Shown here piece after piece: positions 3,776 through 26,455 of a stretch of 34,048 nt of DNA. The stretch is taken from positions 1 to 34,048 of the forward strand of contig WQVB01000001.1 of assembly GCA_009781815.1 (NCBI GenBank), written 5' to 3'. The notes beneath the pieces are model-generated. The model was not told where the DNA came from. It was given only the letters and a program-made list of their open reading frames with translations, and searched no databases. The DNA is from Defluviitaleaceae bacterium. GTDB taxonomy: Bacteria; Bacillota; Clostridia; Lachnospirales; WRAX01. How positions within the stretch are numbered: position 1 is the first letter of the stretch; every line of letters begins with the position of its first letter. The position numbers were made by a program, and so were the translations under genes.

Positions 3776-3809
3776 ATTTTCTCCTTATCTTTTTGAGCCT
3801 ACCCTACAC

Positions 3810-3989
3810 CCCTACCGTCATCCCGTGCCCTCACAGTTCGTCATCCTGAGCCCTTGGTCTTCCTGCTGTCGCAGGCAGAAGGGTAAGACTTGACTCAGGA
3901 TCTAATTGGAGAAGGGCAGGCTTAGTTGGGTGTCCACTATCATACATAGATCCTGAGTCAAGCTCAGGATGACGACTAGGAAGGGTGGG
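3810..3989. repeat. Composite repeat locus B: F1 unit (3840-3973) with a 38-nt F2 insertion in its left hairpin
   Basis: GTCATCCTGAG[CCCTTGGTCTTCCTGCTGTCGCAGGCAGAAGGGTAAGA]CTTGACTCAGGATC, then the conserved spacer, then GATCCTGAGTCAAGCTCAGGATGAC. It lies between the DUF512 stop and the der start. Confidence 0.85.
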
Positions 3990-4001
3990 ATGAGGTCATT
4001 A

Positions 4002-6130: not shown

Positions 6131-6280
6131 CCACTAGTCATCCCAATTTGCTCATCTATCGTTGTAGGGAAGGGATTTATCCCTTCCGACATTATTGGAT
6201 TATCACTCACTAATCCTTCAGATAGGCAAGGCGGAGTGGATGAATCCACTCCCTACAAGGTTAAACTAAATTGACGTCAT
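6131..6280. repeat. Family F3 palindromic unit (core 6164-6256) with outer arms
   Basis: GTAGGGAAGGGATTTATCCCTTCCG, a 43-nt spacer, then CGGAGTGGATGAATCCACTCCCTAC. Outer GTCATCCCAATTTG / CAAGGTTAAACTAAATTGACGTCAT arms are related to those at 17018-17146, 18838-19032 and 23824-24010. Confidence 0.85.
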
Positions 6281-6380
6281 CCTGAGCTTGACTCAGGATC
6301 TATGTATGATAGTGGATGCCCAACTAAGCCTGTCCTGCTCCAATTAGATCCTGAGTCAAGCTCAGGATGACAACTAAGGA
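6276..6380. repeat. Family F1 palindromic unit (cleanest copy)
   Basis: GTCATCCTGAGCTTGACTCAGGATC, spacer CTATGTATGATAGTGGATGCCCAACTAAGCCTGTCCTGCTCCAATTAG, then GATCCTGAGTCAAGCTCAGGATGAC. It abuts the yraN stop codon. Confidence 0.9.
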
Positions 6381-6746
6381 TCATTCCCCAAAAACATTCT
6401 CTATATGCTCAATCTCCAAAACCTCTCGCCCAAAAACACTTAAAACATCAAAACGGCAGGCTGCATCCCACTTTTTCTCTTCATAAAGGTAGGCCTTTGC
6501 CGTCTTCACAATTCTTTTTTGCTTAGCACGGGTTATAGCCTCTAGCCCATCACCAAAGCCAGCACCACGGCGATATTTAACCTCTATAAAAACAATATAC
6601 TCCCCATCTTGGGCTATTATATCAATTTCTCCATCATATTTTTTGTAGTTTTGCTTTAAAATTTCATACCCCTTGCCTTGCAAGTAGCCAAGCACAACCG
6701 CCTCGCCATAATTGCCCTTATCTTTGTTAGCATCCACCTCAATCAC
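6381..6746 (-). CDS. yraN: YraN family (UPF0102) endonuclease-like protein
   Basis: 121 aa with the GEIDIIA....VFIEVKYR...G motif typical of UPF0102. Confidence 0.85.
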   Translation of the reverse strand: MIEVDANKDKGNYGEAVVLGYLQGKGYEILKQNYKKYDGEIDIIAQDGEYIVFIEVKYRRGAGFGDGLEAITRAKQKRIVKTAKAYLYEEKKWDAACRFDVLSVFGREVLEIEHIENVFGE

Positions 6747-6841
6747 CTCTATCTACATTGTATCAAACTTTTAGCTTAAGGGCTAGTCTTTTTTCTTGTG
6801 AAGGGGAGTATTATTTTAATAAGAAAAGGGAGTGGGGCTAG

Positions 6842-7957
6842 ATGAAAATCAAAAAAAGTGTGTTGCCTTTGATATTGTTGGTGGCTGCTATAAATGTGTT
6901 GATTATTGCCTTTCCAAGCGTGGCTTTGCAAGGGGCGCGTGATGGGCTTTTTTTGTGGTTTAACAATGTGTTGCCTGGCATTTTACCTTTTGTTATAGGG
7001 GCTAATGTTTTAATGGCTTTAGGTGTTGTTAAGGTGTTGGGTGTTTTTTTAAACCCTTTGATGAGGTTTGTTTTTAAGCTGCCTGGCAAGGCTTGCTTTC
7101 CTTTTGCCATGGGCATGATATCAGGCTACCCCGTGGGGGCTAAAATTGTTTGTGAGATGCGTCAAAAAGGCGAGCTTAGTAAAAGTGATGCTCAAAGGCT
7201 TTTAGCCTTTACAAACAACGGGGGGCCTTTGTTTATTTTGGGGGCGGTTGGCGTTGGCATGTTTGCCTCACCTGCTTTGGGTTATCTTATTTTGATTGCT
7301 CACTATGGTGTAGCTGTTTTGATAGGCTTTACCCTATCTCTTTTCGCAAGAAAAGACAGGGATGTTGACCATGATGAAAGCTATAAAATGCTTGTTGTTG
7401 ATAAAAAGCAGCCCTTTGGCAAAGTTTTAGGGGAGGCCGTGAAAAACGCTATGGAGACAATGGTACTTATAGGCGGGTTTATGGTTTTGTTCTCCGTGGT
7501 GTCTGTCCTTTTGGTGCGGGTGGGTGTTTTAAATATTTTGCCAGAGAGTGCCTATGCAGAAGGGGTTGTAAAAGGGCTTTTAGAGGCAGCAGGGGGGGTG
7601 GCCGCCATAAGCCAAGAGGGTGCGTCTGCCTTGGCGGCAGGTATCGCTGTTGGCATCATCTCTTTTGGCGGGCTTTCTATAATGTTTCAAACCCTAAGCT
7701 TTGTAAGCAAGACGGATTTAAACCAAGGGCTTTATGTGGTTGCAAAGGTGTTTCATGGCTTTGTGTCTGCTGTGGTTGTGTTTCTTTTATATCCATTTTT
7801 TGCAGAGGCTATAGAGGCACAAGCAACACAAGCAACCTTTGCACCAACCATAACACAAACTTTTATAAGCTCTACAATAAATTTTTTTGCCTTGCTGCTA
7901 GGCCTTGGGGTTTTGTGCTTGATATTTATCTTTGTGAAGTTTTTTAAAAGAAAATAG
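6842..7957 (+). CDS. ylbJ: Sporulation integral membrane protein YlbJ (nucleoside-recognition-domain membrane protein)
   Basis: 371 aa, polytopic, with the motifs LFLWFNNVLPGILPF, MISGYPVGAK and FTNNGGPLFILG. Confidence 0.75.
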   Translation: MKIKKSVLPLILLVAAINVLIIAFPSVALQGARDGLFLWFNNVLPGILPFVIGANVLMALGVVKVLGVFLNPLMRFVFKLPGKACFPFAMGMISGYPVGAKIVCEMRQKGELSKSDAQRLLAFTNNGGPLFILGAVGVGMFASPALGYLILIAHYGVAVLIGFTLSLFARKDRDVDHDESYKMLVVDKKQPFGKVLGEAVKNAMETMVLIGGFMVLFSVVSVLLVRVGVLNILPESAYAEGVVKGLLEAAGGVAAISQEGASALAAGIAVGIISFGGLSIMFQTLSFVSKTDLNQGLYVVAKVFHGFVSAVVVFLLYPFFAEAIEAQATQATFAPTITQTFISSTINFFALLLGLGVLCLIFIFVKFFKRK

Positions 7958-7986
7958 TGCTTCGTTTAGAGCCTTAATGGCATTTT

Positions 7987-8002
7987 TGTTTCACGTGGAA
8001 CT
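7987..8002. other. parS: parS centromere-like site 1
   Basis: TGTTTCACGTGGAACT matches 15/16 positions of the Firmicute parS consensus TGTTNCACGTGAAACA (read on the other strand). It lies 270 nt upstream of soj-spo0J. Confidence 0.85.
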
Positions 8003-8066
8003 TGAGCATAACCCCGTGTTTAATGTGGGTTGATGGTGAGCAAATGGTGGTGAGCATTTGCTAATT

Positions 8067-8082
8067 CATTTCACGTGGAACA
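8067..8082. other. parS: parS centromere-like site 2
   Basis: CATTTCACGTGGAACA matches 14/16 positions of the parS consensus. It lies 65 nt after site 1. Confidence 0.75.
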
Positions 8083-8088
8083 TTTTTA

Positions 8089-8117
8089 TTGCAAACTTCG
8101 ATTTTTTATGATATGAT
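8089..8117 (+). promoter_or_regulatory. Putative sigma-A promoter of soj-spo0J
   Basis: TTGCAA (8089-8094), 17 nt, TATGAT (8112-8117). A TGTATAAT lies 3 nt further on (8120-8127). Confidence 0.3.
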
Positions 8118-8274
8118 ATTGTATAATAAGATTCATAAGAAAAAGTTTATATTATTCCACAGCTAAAGCCTTGCCAAAAATCGTAGGATTTTTTCAAGGA
8201 AGTATTGGTGTAAAAAGACAAGATTTTGCGAGGATTTTAGTTGCGGAATAGTATTATTAAAATGAGGTAGAGAA

Positions 8275-9042
8275 ATGAGTAGAATTATATCCATCGCAAA
8301 CCAAAAAGGCGGAGTAGGCAAAACAACCACGTCAATCAACCTAGCAGCCTGCCTTGCCGAAGCTGGCAAAAAAGTGCTGGTGATAGACCTTGACCCTCAA
8401 GGCAACGCCACAAGCGGCCTTGGCCTTGACAAAAACAACCTAGAAGCCACCGTATATCAACTTTTGCTTGGAGAAAAAAGGGTAGACCAAGCCATAGCAA
8501 AAACGGCTTTTGATAACCTTCATGTGCTGCCCACCAACGTAGAGCTTTCAGGTGCGGAGATTGAGCTTGTGCATTTTGAAGAGAGGGAGTTTATTTTAAA
8601 GCGTATTTTAGCAGATTTAAAATACCTTTATGATTTTGTTTTGATAGACTGCCCCCCGTCTTTAAATATCTTGACGGTAAACGCTCTATCAGCCTCTGAC
8701 ACGGTTTTGGTGCCTTTACAATGTGAATATTTTGCCATGGAGGGCTTAAGCCAGCTTATGCACACCATAGACCTTGTCAACAAAAACTTAAACAGGCGTT
8801 TGTCTCTTGAAGGGGTTGTTTTCACTATGTATGACCCTAGAACAAACCTTTCAGCACAGGTGGTAAAAGAGGTTAGAGCCCATCTTGAAGCTAATATATA
8901 CAACAGCATCATCCCCCGTAATGTGCGTTTAAGCGAGGCACCAAGCCACGGCCTGCCTATAAATGTGTATGACCCAAGGTCTAAAGGCAGCGAGGCATAC
9001 AAGGCACTAGCACAAGAAGTTATTAACAAGGAGGCAATATAG
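8275..9042 (+). CDS. soj: ParA-family chromosome partitioning ATPase Soj
   Basis: Deviant Walker A NQKGGVGKTTT and DLDPQGNAT. 255 aa, immediately followed by parB. Confidence 0.95.
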   Translation: MSRIISIANQKGGVGKTTTSINLAACLAEAGKKVLVIDLDPQGNATSGLGLDKNNLEATVYQLLLGEKRVDQAIAKTAFDNLHVLPTNVELSGAEIELVHFEEREFILKRILADLKYLYDFVLIDCPPSLNILTVNALSASDTVLVPLQCEYFAMEGLSQLMHTIDLVNKNLNRRLSLEGVVFTMYDPRTNLSAQVVKEVRAHLEANIYNSIIPRNVRLSEAPSHGLPINVYDPRSKGSEAYKALAQEVINKEAI

Positions 9043-9043
9043 C

Positions 9044-9910
9044 ATGGGTAAAACACAAAAAGGGCTAGGTAGCAAAGGGTTGGGTAGAGGCTTAAGTGCC
9101 TTGATAGCTCAATCTCCTGTAGAAAAAACATCTAGCGACAATATTTTAGAGATAGACATAAAAAAAATATACCCCAACGAAAACCAACCAAGAAAATATT
9201 TTAAAGCCCCTGAGATAGAGGAGCTAGCAGCATCTATAAAAGAGTTTGGCATTATACAGCCCCTAGTTGTTAAAAAAACTGGCGACAAATACATAATAGT
9301 TGCGGGGGAGAGGCGTTTTAGAGCCGCCACCCAAGCAGGCCTTAAAAAGCTGCCCGTTATTCTAAGGGAGTATAGCGACCTTGAGATACTAGGCATAGCC
9401 CTTATCGAAAACATCCAAAGAGAAGATTTAAACCCCATTGAAGAGGCAAACTGCTATAAACGCCTTGCTGATGAGTTTGGCATGACACAGGGTGAGATTG
9501 CAAAAAAAATAGGCAAAAGCCGCAGCCATATATCCAACTGTATGCGAGTGCTAAAGCTTGATGACACTATTTTAGATTTAATATCTTCAGAAAAAATAAG
9601 CATGGGTCATGCCAAAGCTATTTTGGCTGTAGAGTGCCCTGATTTTCAACTAGAGCTAGCCAACCGAGTTGTAGATGAAGGCTTAAACGTGCGTCAAACC
9701 GAAGAGCTATCTCGCACAAAGCCTACTGGCCAAGCTAAAAAAGCGGCCAAGCCTTTAAAAAAGACCTATGACCACTTTACAAAAGATTTTGGAAGCTTTT
9801 TTGGCACAAAAGTCGCTATTAAAGACAACAAAAAAGGTGGAGGTAAGATAGAGATAAACTACAGCTCCACCGCTGACTTAGAGCGTATAATGGAGATTAT
9901 TAAGAAGTAG
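9044..9910 (+). CDS. spo0J: ParB-family partitioning protein Spo0J
   Basis: ParB box VAGERRFRAA, IENIQREDLNPIEEA, and the HTH region TQGEIAKKIGKSRSHISN. Confidence 0.95.
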   Translation: MGKTQKGLGSKGLGRGLSALIAQSPVEKTSSDNILEIDIKKIYPNENQPRKYFKAPEIEELAASIKEFGIIQPLVVKKTGDKYIIVAGERRFRAATQAGLKKLPVILREYSDLEILGIALIENIQREDLNPIEEANCYKRLADEFGMTQGEIAKKIGKSRSHISNCMRVLKLDDTILDLISSEKISMGHAKAILAVECPDFQLELANRVVDEGLNVRQTEELSRTKPTGQAKKAAKPLKKTYDHFTKDFGSFFGTKVAIKDNKKGGGKIEINYSSTADLERIMEIIKK

Positions 9911-9931
9911 CTCTCCGATCTTCCCCTCAAT

Positions 9932-10052
9932 CCCTCCTAAGTCGTCATCCCGTGCTTGACACGGGATCTATGTATGATAGTGGACAACCTCAACTAGGAC
10001 TGCCCTTCTCCAATTAGATCCCGTGTCAAGCACGGGATGACGACTTAGGGGA
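9932..10052. repeat. Family F1 unit, CCCGTG/CACGGG stem variant
   Basis: CCTAAGTCGTCATCCCGTGCTTGACACGGGATC, the conserved spacer, then GATCCCGTGTCAAGCACGGGATGACGACTTAGG. Both hairpins carry the compensated stem. Confidence 0.9.
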
Positions 10053-10796: not shown

Positions 10797-10945
10797 AAAA
10801 ACCCTCCTAAGCGTGATAATCAGCTAGGAGGTGAATTTAAAAAATAAAAAAGCACCAGCTTCCCTTCGGCAGCATTATCTGCATCAGGTTATAAGGGTAT
10901 TTCTCAGCCTCTACATAAGTAGCAGCACCCCTAGCTTTATAGTTG
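10797..10945 (-). promoter_or_regulatory. TPP (THI-box) riboswitch with expression platform
   Basis: Minus-strand RNA reads GCUAGGGGUGCUGC..GGCUGAGAAAUACCCUUAUAACCUGAUGCAGAUAAUGCUGCCGAAGGGAAG, which contains the conserved CUGAGA, ACCUGAU and AGGGAA blocks. The downstream CACCUCCUAGC can pair with the SD UAGGAGG of thiT. Confidence 0.9.
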
Positions 10946-11813: not shown

Positions 11814-11848
11814 CCGTCAAGTATGTAGGCGTGTACAAACCCAAGTGT

Positions 11849-12017
11849 CGTCATCCTGAGCCCTTGGTCTTCCTTCTGCCTGCGGCAGCAGGAAGACCAA
11901 GGGCTCAGGATGACGACTTAGGGAGGTTGAGAGGCTGCTTCGCTACAAGTCTATGCGGGCTTGATCCGCAATGACGATGTGAGTGCAAATCGGAATGACG
12001 TGAGCACGGGATGACGA
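11849..12017. repeat. Composite repeat locus E: 67-nt perfect long hairpin (F1 stem plus complete F2 palindrome), then F4 and F3-arm fragments
   Basis: CGTCATCCTGAGCCCTTGGTCTTCC (11849-11873) and GGAAGACCAAGGGCTCAGGATGACG (11891-11915) form a 25-bp perfect stem. ATGCGGGCTTGATCCGCAAT follows at 11953-11972. The locus lies between convergent gene ends. Confidence 0.85.
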
Positions 12018-12036
12018 CAGGTATAATAGACTTTGT

Positions 12037-12865: not shown

Positions 12866-12985
12866 CCCTCCCTACCGTCATCCTGAAGCTTGACTCAGGA
12901 TCTAATTGGAGAAGTAGACAGCCCTAATCAAGGTATGCACTACCCCACATAGATCCTGAGTCAAGCTCAGGATGACGGTAGGGGA
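12866..12985. repeat. Family F1 unit (reverse orientation)
   Basis: CCTACCGTCATCCTGAAGCTTGACTCAGGATC, spacer CTAATTGGAGAAG...CACATAG, then GATCCTGAGTCAAGCTCAGGATGACGGTAGG. Confidence 0.9.
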
Positions 12986-17017: not shown

Positions 17018-17146
17018 GCCATTCCAATTTACCCATGTAGGGAATGGATTTATCCATTCCGTTTCATCTTGCTGAAGTATAGAAAGGTGCAGACCTAATA
17101 GCGGAATGGATAAATCCATTCCCTACAAAGAGAATTGGGATGACGT
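17018..17146. repeat. Family F3 unit with outer arms
   Basis: GTAGGGAATGGATTTATCCATTCCG (17037-17061), a 40-nt spacer, then CGGAATGGATAAATCCATTCCCTAC (17102-17126). The outer arm is ..GAATTGGGATGACG. Confidence 0.9.
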
Positions 17147-18837: not shown

Positions 18838-19032
18838 CTGTCATCCCGTGTCAAGCACTCAAGCACGGAACACGTCAATCTAATTTGGAATTTTTGCCAC
18901 TGTAGGAAACGCATTTATGCGTTCCGCATTGCCTTGTTGAAGGATAAAAAGGTGCAAATTCAATAGCGGAATGGATAAATCCATTCCCTACAAGGTCAAA
19001 TTAGATTGGCGTGAGTACGTGATGAGGAGCGA
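18838..19032. repeat. Composite repeat locus H: F3 unit (18902-18991) nested in CGTCAATCTAATTTGG / CAAATTAGATTGGCG arms, themselves inside a split CCCGTG-type hairpin
   Basis: The left F3 hairpin is GGAAACGCATTTATGCGTTCC (compensated stem). The right one is GGAATGGATAAATCCATTCC. Confidence 0.85.
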
Positions 19033-19886: not shown

Positions 19887-20074
19887 ATTGCGGATCAAGT
19901 CAGCTAATAAACCTGTTGTTGAGTCGACCCCCTAAGTCGTCATCCTGAGCCCTTGGTCTTCCTGCTGCCGCAGGCAGAAGGGTAAGACTTGACTCAGGAT
20001 CTAATTGGAGGAGGACAAGCCTAGTTGGGTATGCACTATCATACATAGATCCCGTGTCAAGCATGGGATGACGA
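19887..20074. repeat. Composite repeat locus I: F4 half-hairpin remnant plus F1 unit (19939-20072) with the same 38-nt F2 insertion as locus B
   Basis: GTCATCCTGAG[CCCTTGGTCTTCCTGCTGCCGCAGGCAGAAGGGTAAGA]CTTGACTCAGGATC ... GATCCCGTGTCAAGCATGGGATGAC. The track ORF 19900-20097 is a translation of this repeat. Confidence 0.85.
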
Positions 20075-23040: not shown

Positions 23041-23147
23041 TATCGTCATCCTGAGCTTGACTCAGGATCTAATTAGAGAAGGGCACTCCTAATTAGGGTA
23101 CGCACTATCCCACATAGATCCTGAGTCAAGCTCAGGATGACGAGTAG
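23041..23147. repeat. Family F1 unit overlapping the 3' end of tmk
   Basis: GTCATCCTGAGCTTGACTCAGGATC, spacer CTAATTAGAGAAGGGCACTCC...CCACATAG, then GATCCTGAGTCAAGCTCAGGATGAC. The tmk stop codon (23089-23091) lies in the spacer. Confidence 0.9.
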
Positions 23148-23823: not shown

Positions 23824-24152
23824 ACCCCTAAGTCGTCATCCTCATCTCACGTCAATCTAATTTGGAACTTTTACCATTGTAGGGAACCCTGAATCAAGTT
23901 CAGGGCAGGCTCCTTTATGCGTTCCGCCTTGTCTCTCTGAAGGATAAAAAGGTGCAAACCCAATAACGGAATGGATAAATCCATTCCCTACAAGGTTAAA
24001 TTAGATCGACATTTCCCGTGCTTGACATGAGATTTATGTGGGTTAGTTCATATCCTAATTAAGGCTGCCCTTCCCTAATTAGATCCTGAGTCAAGCTCAG
24101 GATGACGACTTGGAAGGGTTGAGTGGCGTTTCGCTACAAGTCTAATGACGTG
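23824..24152. repeat. Composite repeat locus K: F3 unit (23879-23991) carrying an inserted CCCTGAA-TCAAG-TTCAGGG hairpin, a degenerate F1 unit (24012-24106), and a GCTACAAGTCTAATGACG fragment
   Basis: Direct reading. Outer arms are CCTAAGTCGTCATCC (23827-) and GGATGACGACTTGG (-24113). Confidence 0.85.
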
Positions 24153-26170: not shown

Positions 26171-26455
26171 GTCATCAGACCTGTAGCGAAACGACCCTAA
26201 GTCGTCATCCTGAGCTTGACTCAGGATCTAACTGGAGAAGGACGCAGCCCTAAAATATGGCATGCACTACCCCATGTAGATCCTGAGTCAAGCTCAGGAT
26301 GACGTAAGGGGGCACAGTTTTGCTACAGGTCTATTGCGGGCCCTTGGTTGAGCTTGGTTTTAAGCGAAACTTGATCCGCAATCCCCTTTCTAGTCTGAAT
26401 AATTCAGGAAGGAAGGGGATCCTGAATCAAACCTTGCCAAGGGTTCAGGATGACA
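26171..26455. repeat. Composite repeat locus L (last one in the window): F1 unit (26204-26303) inside AGACCTGTAGCGAAAC / GTTTTGCTACAGGTCT arms, then F4 hairpin with a 30-nt insertion (26333-26382), then CCTGAA/TTCAGG hairpin with a 12-nt palindromic insertion
   Basis: Direct reading of inverted repeats. Details are in the findings. Confidence 0.85.

Follow-up and report, generated by a model that had tools for sequence, protein, structure and literature searches.

What keeps the two arms of a short dispersed repeat complementary when its inner sequence changes from copy to copy? The question is raised by the first 34,048 nt of contig WQVB01000001.1 (hereafter, the window), from a Defluviitaleaceae (Clostridia) metagenome-assembled genome (MAG; GCA_009781815.1). 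Hairpins recur along this stretch that an initial annotation, made from the letters alone, designated F1 and F4, with a CTTGA loop, and F3, with a TTTA/TAAA loop. The annotation proposed that structure is conserved in them rather than sequence, and that either a protein, for example an HUH transposase, or an RNA-level function reads a hairpin with a specific loop. We followed these hairpins through the whole assembly (1.31 Mb, 209 contigs, 43% G+C, 69% complete), to which the counts given below refer. The F1/F4 hairpins are CGTC-tagged repetitive extragenic palindromic (REP) sequences, also termed Ssn-related motifs (SRM), whereas the F3 hairpins are a classical GTAG-tagged REP/REPIN family, distinct from F1/F4. 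They probably represent two co-resident REP families, each a single-stranded DNA (ssDNA) hairpin recognised by a small, separately encoded enzyme.

Every hairpin quoted in the initial annotation was recovered at its position in the window, and the paired substitutions that it had noticed in the F1/F4 stems extend over the whole genome. The pattern AT-N6-CTTGA-N6-AT occurs at 711 sites, 609 of them with six Watson-Crick core pairs and 57 with one mismatch, whereas 14 alternative loop pentamers produced 0–1 perfect stems each, and CTCGA produced 10. Likewise, the tagged pattern GTCAT-N6-CTTGA-N6-ATC generated 639 matches, versus none for the reversed pattern. Pairing was evaluated in 66 distinct sequences drawn from this assembly, from two relatives and from other phyla, picked by their flanks and loop only and blind to pairing. 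Paired cells amounted to 90% in this set, as compared with 72.9 ± 1.1 in shuffles, and double-sided changes, seen at all six variable pairs, to 104 cells as compared with 34 ± 5 (none of 500 shuffles reached 104). The covariation score was 0.51, versus 0.20 in shuffles and 0.15 or less with a slid partner.

The F1/F4 unit is organized as xGTC / AT-N6 / CTTGA / N6'-AT / C-tail, with unpaired tag and tail, and its stem is 8 bp long in 649 of 710 hairpins. Copies anchored on their tail contained the CTTGA loop in 194, and the AT/AT closing pairs in 193, of 197 cases. Among 666 hairpins, the tags were CGTC (541), TGTC (72), GGTC (20) or AGTC (11) and the 3-nt tails were CTA (440), CTC (143) or CCC (71), not CCA; perfect hairpins were preceded by GTC in 595 of 608 cases and followed by C in 599 of 608. 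The constancy of flanks and loop attributed to all the variants of the window holds in general, except that the copy at 23888-23904 lacks the GTCAT/AT flanks and the loop of that at 26421-26449 is split by 12 nt. Divergence of stem and loop is ~0.3–0.5% per site, as compared with a nearest-neighbour spacer distance of ~7%, suggesting roughly tenfold greater variation in the spacer than in the hairpin; in a comparison of singleton alleles for spacer and hairpin decay, private changes were masked by recurrent and recombined polymorphisms.

The 639 tagged sites reduce to 39 distinct sequences, and 11 perfect stem words cover 587 of the copies: CCCGTG (215), CCTGAG (188), TGCGGA (85), TGCGGG (45), CCTGAA (22), CCCCAA (17), CCCGCA (7) and four less frequent words. 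Word and tail are associated, CTA accompanying CCCGTG or CCTGAG in 395 of 409 copies and CTC or CCC accompanying TGCGGA or TGCGGG in 130 of 141. Adjacent hairpins within 400 nt have their tags outward in 244 pairs versus inward in 41, and a typical doublet spans ~100 bp with its tags outward. The 239 doublets with this orientation and 25–83-nt spacers include 176 homodimers, with an identical word occupying all four arms in 74% of the doublets, and 63 heterodimers, in agreement with the previous observation that one element can carry two stem types. At least three backbones carry the hairpin module, and the spacer polymorphisms of the main backbone are reshuffled in many combinations. In this backbone, the nearest-neighbour spacer has the same word in 75–77% of cases, compared with 56% for random pairs, and among 41 spacer pairs with two or fewer nt differences, 11 have different words. 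Converting a CCCGTG homodimer into a CCTGAG homodimer needs eight substitutions; therefore, words are exchanged as modules and not by point mutation. The proposal of conserved structure rather than sequence thus stands in that pairing is kept, but it fails to account for the restriction of stems to a few words, each associated with certain tails and backbones, or for the loss of activity of the Neisseria nuclease SsnA (see below) after a structure-preserving stem swap (PMC11893778). Because they are linked to tails, backbones and, in two examples, nuclease paralogs, the words appear to form a limited repertoire of separate specificity classes instead of having arisen by free drift.

Published SRM and NTS hairpins are bound by Ssn, a single-domain GIY-YIG nuclease of ~94 aa whose activity is restricted to ssDNA and to one strand, its cut falling a few nt to the 5' side of the tag (Chenal et al. 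2025, PMC11893778). Besides uvrC, the assembly contains two small GIY-YIG genes, on contigs designated C14 (5105-5389) and C159 (2584-2877). Against PF01541, the product of 97 aa scores 60.5 bits, in an open frame of 106 aa, and that of 95 aa scores 50.4 bits, in an open frame of 94 aa. Both proteins carry Y6, Y17 and E65, the corresponding residues of Neisseria SsnA being Y6, Y17 and E64. The gene on C14 is preceded, ~100 nt upstream, by a CCTGAG doublet and followed, 20 nt downstream, by a CCTGAG hairpin, and that on C159 lies between a TGCGGG doublet, 75 nt before it, and a TGCGGG hairpin, 30 nt after it. With 61% identity, the two paralogs appear as sisters in the protein tree (support 98/90) within a Defluviitaleaceae clade. 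Loop type and Ssn clade showed no clean pattern in this tree, over which the genes flanked by CTTGA hairpins are scattered. We identified Ssn-like homologs (42–55% identity) in 12 of the 19 genomes that bear hairpins, namely G000, one of four relatives and 10 of 14 genomes of other phyla. Many of these genes are tightly bracketed by xGTC hairpins in + orientation at 15–40 nt upstream and in − orientation downstream. Among them are hairpin-flanked homologs with 42–48% identity in Povalibacter, Massilia and Devosia, genera that carry NTS-type repeats and in which the flanking hairpins are of the NTS type; this gives indirect support to a possible place of the two proteins in the clade of characterised SsnA (CDD family cd10448). 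Membership of the UPF0213 subfamily was excluded, the PDB matches to its proteins being weak (E 0.02).

These proteins bear on the proposal of a protein that reads an ssDNA hairpin, which our results support, although the HUH transposase given as an example agrees with F3 and not with F1/F4. The F1/F4 hairpins are likely read by the two Ssn-type GIY-YIG nucleases of C14 and C159; an Ssn-type enzyme is favoured over an HUH enzyme because the published partner is the GIY-YIG nuclease Ssn (PMC11893778) and because two hairpin-bracketed Ssn-like genes exist here.

The F3 hairpins behave like F1/F4, as had been noted from the window: there are ~150 copies, of the form GTAG-GGA[AG][TGC]G[GC]A-TTTA/TTCA-arm, and four perfect words, the loop being TTTA or TTCA. 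Perfect hairpins follow GTAG in 177 cases, ~150 of which are F3, versus 1–5 cases after the control tags GATG, CTAC, GACG and CCTC. One of the variants quoted previously, CGCA/TGCG at 18910-18921, is present with a one-base bulge. A single RAYT-like HUH gene was found in the assembly, outside the window, at C9:6899-7409, with an HVHLII motif and a C-terminal Tyr motif. Its product scores 64.4 bits with NF047646 (cut-off 80) and 23.1 with PF01797 (cut-off 23), and matches PDB 4ER8 (TnpA_REP) with E 4e-4; as judged from its sequence, it is RAYT-like, falling below the curated threshold of NF047646, so that it is no confirmed equivalog. An F3 doublet lies 26–98 nt upstream of the ATG of this gene, and two more F3 hairpins are in frame within its open reading frame (ORF). 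The F3 hairpins would thus be served by this single HUH tyrosine enzyme.

The hairpins inside this ORF encode the peptides 'TERINPFP' and 'GKGFIPS'. The RAYT-like genes of relatives (loci L118, L119, L123 and L127) contain hairpins at the same loop positions, with stem words specific to each genome (GGGCGAAC, GGGCGGGC, GGGCGGCA). Autoregulation, a hot spot of insertion or concerted evolution might account for these in-ORF hairpins; we know of no description of REP hairpins within the ORFs of RAYT-like genes.

Our preferred reading for F1/F4 is as follows. By analogy with published SsnA, each Ssn-type enzyme would recognise one ssDNA strand, bind to the hairpin folded on it and introduce a nick a few bases away from the tag, on its 5' side. 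The protein would contact the tag, closing pairs, loop and tail C, and we propose that these are fixed because of such contacts. The six inner pairs would have to pair and yet would be limited to a small repertoire of words, each going with particular tails, backbones and ssn paralogs, and exchanged between copies through recombination or conversion. The association of words with paralogs suggests specificity classes that diversified along with a duplicated nuclease. The doublet may be a gene-less derivative of the hairpin-ssn-hairpin unit, because the two share the same geometry, with tags outward. We tentatively consider a more ambitious possibility, which we would not favour at present: the duplicated Ssn paralogs and the combinations of word and tail would form matched lock-and-key classes, with the words serving as specificity codes instead of reflecting neutral compensatory drift, and with doublets that, as gene-less derivatives, spread and have their words swapped via Ssn nicks 5' of the tags on opposite strands. 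Ssn would then be the long-missing mobilising enzyme of CGTC-REPs.

Several observations weigh against Ssn-type nucleases as readers of F1/F4. The published SRM search string, HGTCWY-N0-2-YYVSBRH-N0-5-WNVSBRG-N0-2-RNCYNB (PMC11893778), matches 135 sites in the assembly, including 115 of 218 CCCGTG copies and five of eight CCCGCA copies, and never matches copies with CCTGAG, TGCGGA, TGCGGG, CCTGAA or CCCCAA. No Ssn-like gene was found in relatives G026, G028 and G033, which carry 17–125 copies, or in genomes G005, G006, G009 and G010, and a search for an Ssn-like protein in Neisseria lactamica gave no match. The matching of words to paralogs rests on two genes, whose number is itself uncertain at 69% completeness of the assembly, and the TGCGGG hairpins at the C159 gene carry a CTA tail, unusual for this word. 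At a density of one hairpin every 2 kb, some chance adjacency to any gene is expected. Additionally, Ssn is not known to copy or move these repeats.

The alternatives differ in what would read the hairpins, if anything does. It could be argued that an HUH tyrosine transposase, either a RAYT or an IS200/IS605 TnpA, also recognises and spreads the CTTGA hairpins: the layout of tag plus hairpin in F1/F4 is similar to that of GTAG REPs, we searched for a target-site duplication around F1/F4 copies and found none beyond chance, and a RAYT-like gene is encoded in the genome. Furthermore, CTTG in the loop may resemble HUH nick sites such as those of pC194 and phiX174, and the target of IS91. Across 20 genomes of the family, however, RAYT-like genes are absent from G026 and G025, with 125 and 20 F1/F4 copies, respectively, and present in G027, G029, G031 and G036, all with 0 copies. 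Strong IS200-type matches occur in three of five hairpin-rich versus three of 15 hairpin-poor genomes, the locus of G026 is devoid of hairpins, and Y1 loci carry no CTTGA hairpins; besides, the RAYT-like gene found here is linked to F3 and not to F1/F4, and no transposase was found linked to CGTC repeats by Di Nocera 2013 (PMC3733652). We therefore discarded RAYT and IS200 as the F1/F4 enzyme by the phyletic pattern and the flanks, and consider a role of HUH transposases on these hairpins very unlikely.

Reading at the RNA level, with F1/F4 acting as terminators, stabilisers or protein-binding stem-loops whose pairing is kept by selection on RNA folding, is to us the least credible explanation. 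More than 99% of the copies are intergenic, only five long frames containing a hairpin deep inside, and the initial annotation cited a G:T pair at 20051-20072, a type of pair also noted in GTAG repeats by Di Nocera 2013 (PMC3733652). That pair exists, but it reflects no trend: we looked for a strand bias of wobble pairs among the F1/F4 hairpins with single mismatches and found none, with GT+TG in 27 and AC+CA in 24. The doublets are also symmetric and lack a T-run, some copies are in frame within pheT, ftsK and murE, the same module occurs in many phyla whatever the gene context, and published SsnA binds ssDNA and not RNA (PMC11893778). Somewhat less improbable, but still unlikely, is that nothing reads the stem sequence and that perfect stems and concerted changes in the four arms arise mainly from a mutational process, either gene conversion between copies or the correction of quasi-palindromes by template switching within a strand, the words being accidents of a few master copies. 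The repetition of one word in the four arms of most doublets, the near-identical backbones with different words, the reshuffled spacer polymorphisms and the low divergence of stem and loop in comparison with spacers all agree with such a process, which nevertheless leaves unexplained the invariant asymmetric loop, the tag and tail C, the recurrence of CCCGTG with the same flanks in more than 10 phyla and the association of words with tails; moreover, stem sequence matters to SsnA in published data (PMC11893778). The mutational process probably contributes, without being a true alternative.

The window contains the following F1/F4 elements. The doublet at 1590-1713 has tags outward and both hairpins of the form ATTGCGGA-CTTGA-TCCGCAAT, with a CCC tail, a 68-nt spacer and a backbone of family 3. 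Homodimers of CCTGAG are located at 6275-6372, with a 48-nt asymmetric spacer and a backbone of family 1, at 23044-23142 (49-nt spacer) and at 26203-26304 (52-nt spacer), whereas the doublet at 9943-10042 is a CCCGTG homodimer with a 50-nt spacer and the same backbone as that at 6275-6372. In the CCTGAG doublet at 3837-3976, a 38-nt palindromic insert separates the 5' arm from CTTGA in the left hairpin, and the right one (3949-3973) is intact; at 12876-12977, the right CCTGAG hairpin (12952-12976) is intact and the left one has one extra base; and at 24014-24107, the left hairpin is decayed (CCCGTG/CATGAG) and the right CCTGAG one is intact. The heterodimer at 19936-20073 combines a left CCTGAG hairpin with a 38-nt insert and a right CCCGTG hairpin with one mismatch, which is G:T on the + strand and A:C on the CTTGA strand. 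Two single hairpins are also present, one with CCTGAG arms and a 43-nt palindrome in place of the CTTGA loop (11847-11923), and a CCTGAA hairpin on the − strand with 12 nt inserted in the loop (26421-26449). The F3 hairpins form pairs at 6166-6256 (GTAG-GGAAGGGA-TTTA-TCCCTTCC and, on the other strand, GGAGTGGA-TGAA-TCCACTCC-CTAC), at 17039-17126 (GTAG-GGAATGGA-TTTA-TCCATTCC and GGAATGGA-TAAA-TCCATTCC-CTAC) and at 18903-18991, where the first hairpin has the word GGAA(A)CGCA, with the bulge mentioned above.

Incomplete and interrupted forms of F1/F4 were also found. Genome-wide, there are 227 half-sites, consisting of the tag and the 5' arm without the loop (GTCAT plus word; in the window, for example, 1726-1758, 3776-3836 and 11986-12018), with the typical layout GTCATCCCGTG-CCACCCCTACC-GTCAT.... 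The flanks of the hairpins are C-rich and often contain a half-site: 46 hairpins have one within 70 nt on the tag (5') side, versus one hairpin on the tail (3') side; the side with the excess is that on which published SsnA cuts (PMC11893778). Palindromic modules are nested in hairpins, either in the loop or at the junction of 5' arm and loop (window positions 3851-3888, 19950-19987, 11861-11903 and 26436-26447), and a 31-nt module (CCTTGGTTGAGCCTTGGTTTTCAGGTGAAAC) occupies the spacer of eight doublets directly after CTATG, where genome spacers measure 79–83 nt. Another module, CCAGTCAAGCTGAGGGCAGGCTCCGAT, has ~17 copies genome-wide (e.g., C9:12659 and C17:11358), in which a structure with a loop other than CTTGA replaces the hairpin; it has a CTAATTGGAGAAGG tail in common with backbone family 1.

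Copies within genes were observed as in-frame CGTC hairpins or doublets in C2:9828-12351 (pheT), C79:3406-6001 (ftsK), C159:777-2364 (murE) and C40:2035-4606, adding peptides such as RHPVLDTGSP and IADQVRND, as occurs with Rickettsia palindromic elements. Between genes, the gap from a radical-SAM gene to der is ~200 nt long and composed entirely of repeat modules (window 3776-4001), as compared with 10–25 nt in relatives (loci L030 and L032); in an empty-site comparison at this locus, the relatives were too diverged to give exact element ends. In this genome, repeats have thus enlarged gaps between genes that would otherwise be very short. Genes of the window include Clostridia-type markers (single-chain FGAM synthase, Der, RicT, HolB, Noc/Spo0J and a YlbJ-like protein), and the nearest relatives of Der are from termite-gut Defluviitaleaceae MAGs, with ~80% identity. 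Additionally, a TPP riboswitch (RF00059, 71 bits) is located at 10844-10942 on the − strand, upstream of a putative thiT.

The distribution of F1/F4 is patchy over the 20 genomes of the family, with 639, 125, 42, 20 and 17 copies in five of them and 0–2 in the others, and of 300 further Bacillota genomes sampled, not one had more than two matches to the pattern, all such matches being unpaired. Conversely, the exact 27-mer with the word CCCGTG is found in Gastranaerophilaceae, Rickettsiales, Bacteroidales, Paceibacterota, Daviesbacteria, Sulfuricurvum, Pseudoalteromonas and others, and the word recurs with the same flanks, and with CTA or CCA tails, in more than 10 phyla. Small dispersed repeats of the Nostoc type were considered and dropped, given the Defluviitaleaceae host and the presence of the exact 27-mer in many phyla. 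This genome is, thus, a dense and phylum-atypical example of known repeat classes and not a new kind of element: stem variation has been on record since 2013 and the partner enzyme since 2025. It extends the host range to a termite-gut lineage of Clostridia in which such repeats are otherwise absent, and extends the sequence space of Ssn-type motifs, most of its words escaping the published search string. With ~650 young hairpins, a handful of words and two Ssn paralogs each bracketed by one word, the genome constitutes a natural experiment, with the RAYT/GTAG-REP system as an internal control, for approaching whether stem sequence determines specificity and whether Ssn cutting drives spread.

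F1/F4 can be compared with two described systems. As defined by Di Nocera 2013 (PMC3733652), CGTC-tagged REPs have a CGTC or TGTC tag, an 8–9-bp stem with A/T in the first two positions, a 4–5-nt loop and a short unpaired 3-nt tail of consensus CCA, are mostly found as inverted dimers of one preferred polarity, and show compensatory stem variation. F1/F4 resemble the CGTC-2 type, an assignment made by stem and loop length, in the unpaired CGTC/TGTC tag, the 8-bp stem opening with A/T, the 5-nt loop and the short tail, as well as in their complementary stem changes, the coexistence of homo- and heterodimers, the occasional genic copies and the lack of a linked transposase. They differ in their tails (CTA, CTC or CCC versus CCA), in their much higher density, and in their clostridial host, since Bacillota are not among the five phyla listed there; the supplements of the same article contained no CTTGA sequences in our search.

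The similarity to SRM/NTS hairpins lies in the CGTCAT-palindrome-ATC structure, with an invariant GTC before and C after the palindrome and rare occurrence within genes, whereas the CTTGA loop contrasts with the 3–4-nt loop of NTS. In the published system, SsnA binding depends critically on the C that follows the palindrome and cleavage on the three bases that precede it, and ssn genes are typically bracketed by the motif (PMC11893778); a role of Ssn in the spread of copies is an idea raised in that work. The Ssn-like genes described here share the size of ~95 aa, the single GIY-YIG domain, residues Y6, Y17 and E64-65 and hairpins on both sides, and as in the Ssn system more than one paralog is present, with a different hairpin variant at each. 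They come, though, from a Gram-positive host with no known link to natural transformation.

The F3 family, in turn, resembles the REP/REPIN-RAYT systems (E. coli TnpA_REP, PDB 4ER8, and the REPINs of Pseudomonas) in its GTAG tag, compensated 8-bp stem and inverted doublets, and in a single-copy HUH/Y1 gene with a REP doublet immediately upstream; unlike these systems, the RAYT-like protein is sub-threshold, its ORF contains two REP hairpins of its own, and F1/F4 are not explained by it. Finally, the Rickettsia palindromic elements RPE-4 and RPE-6 were equated with CGTC-4 and CGTC-1 by Di Nocera 2013 (PMC3733652), and the in-frame copies in the essential genes pheT, ftsK and murE, although rare here (five frames among 666 hairpins), are of the same kind as those elements.

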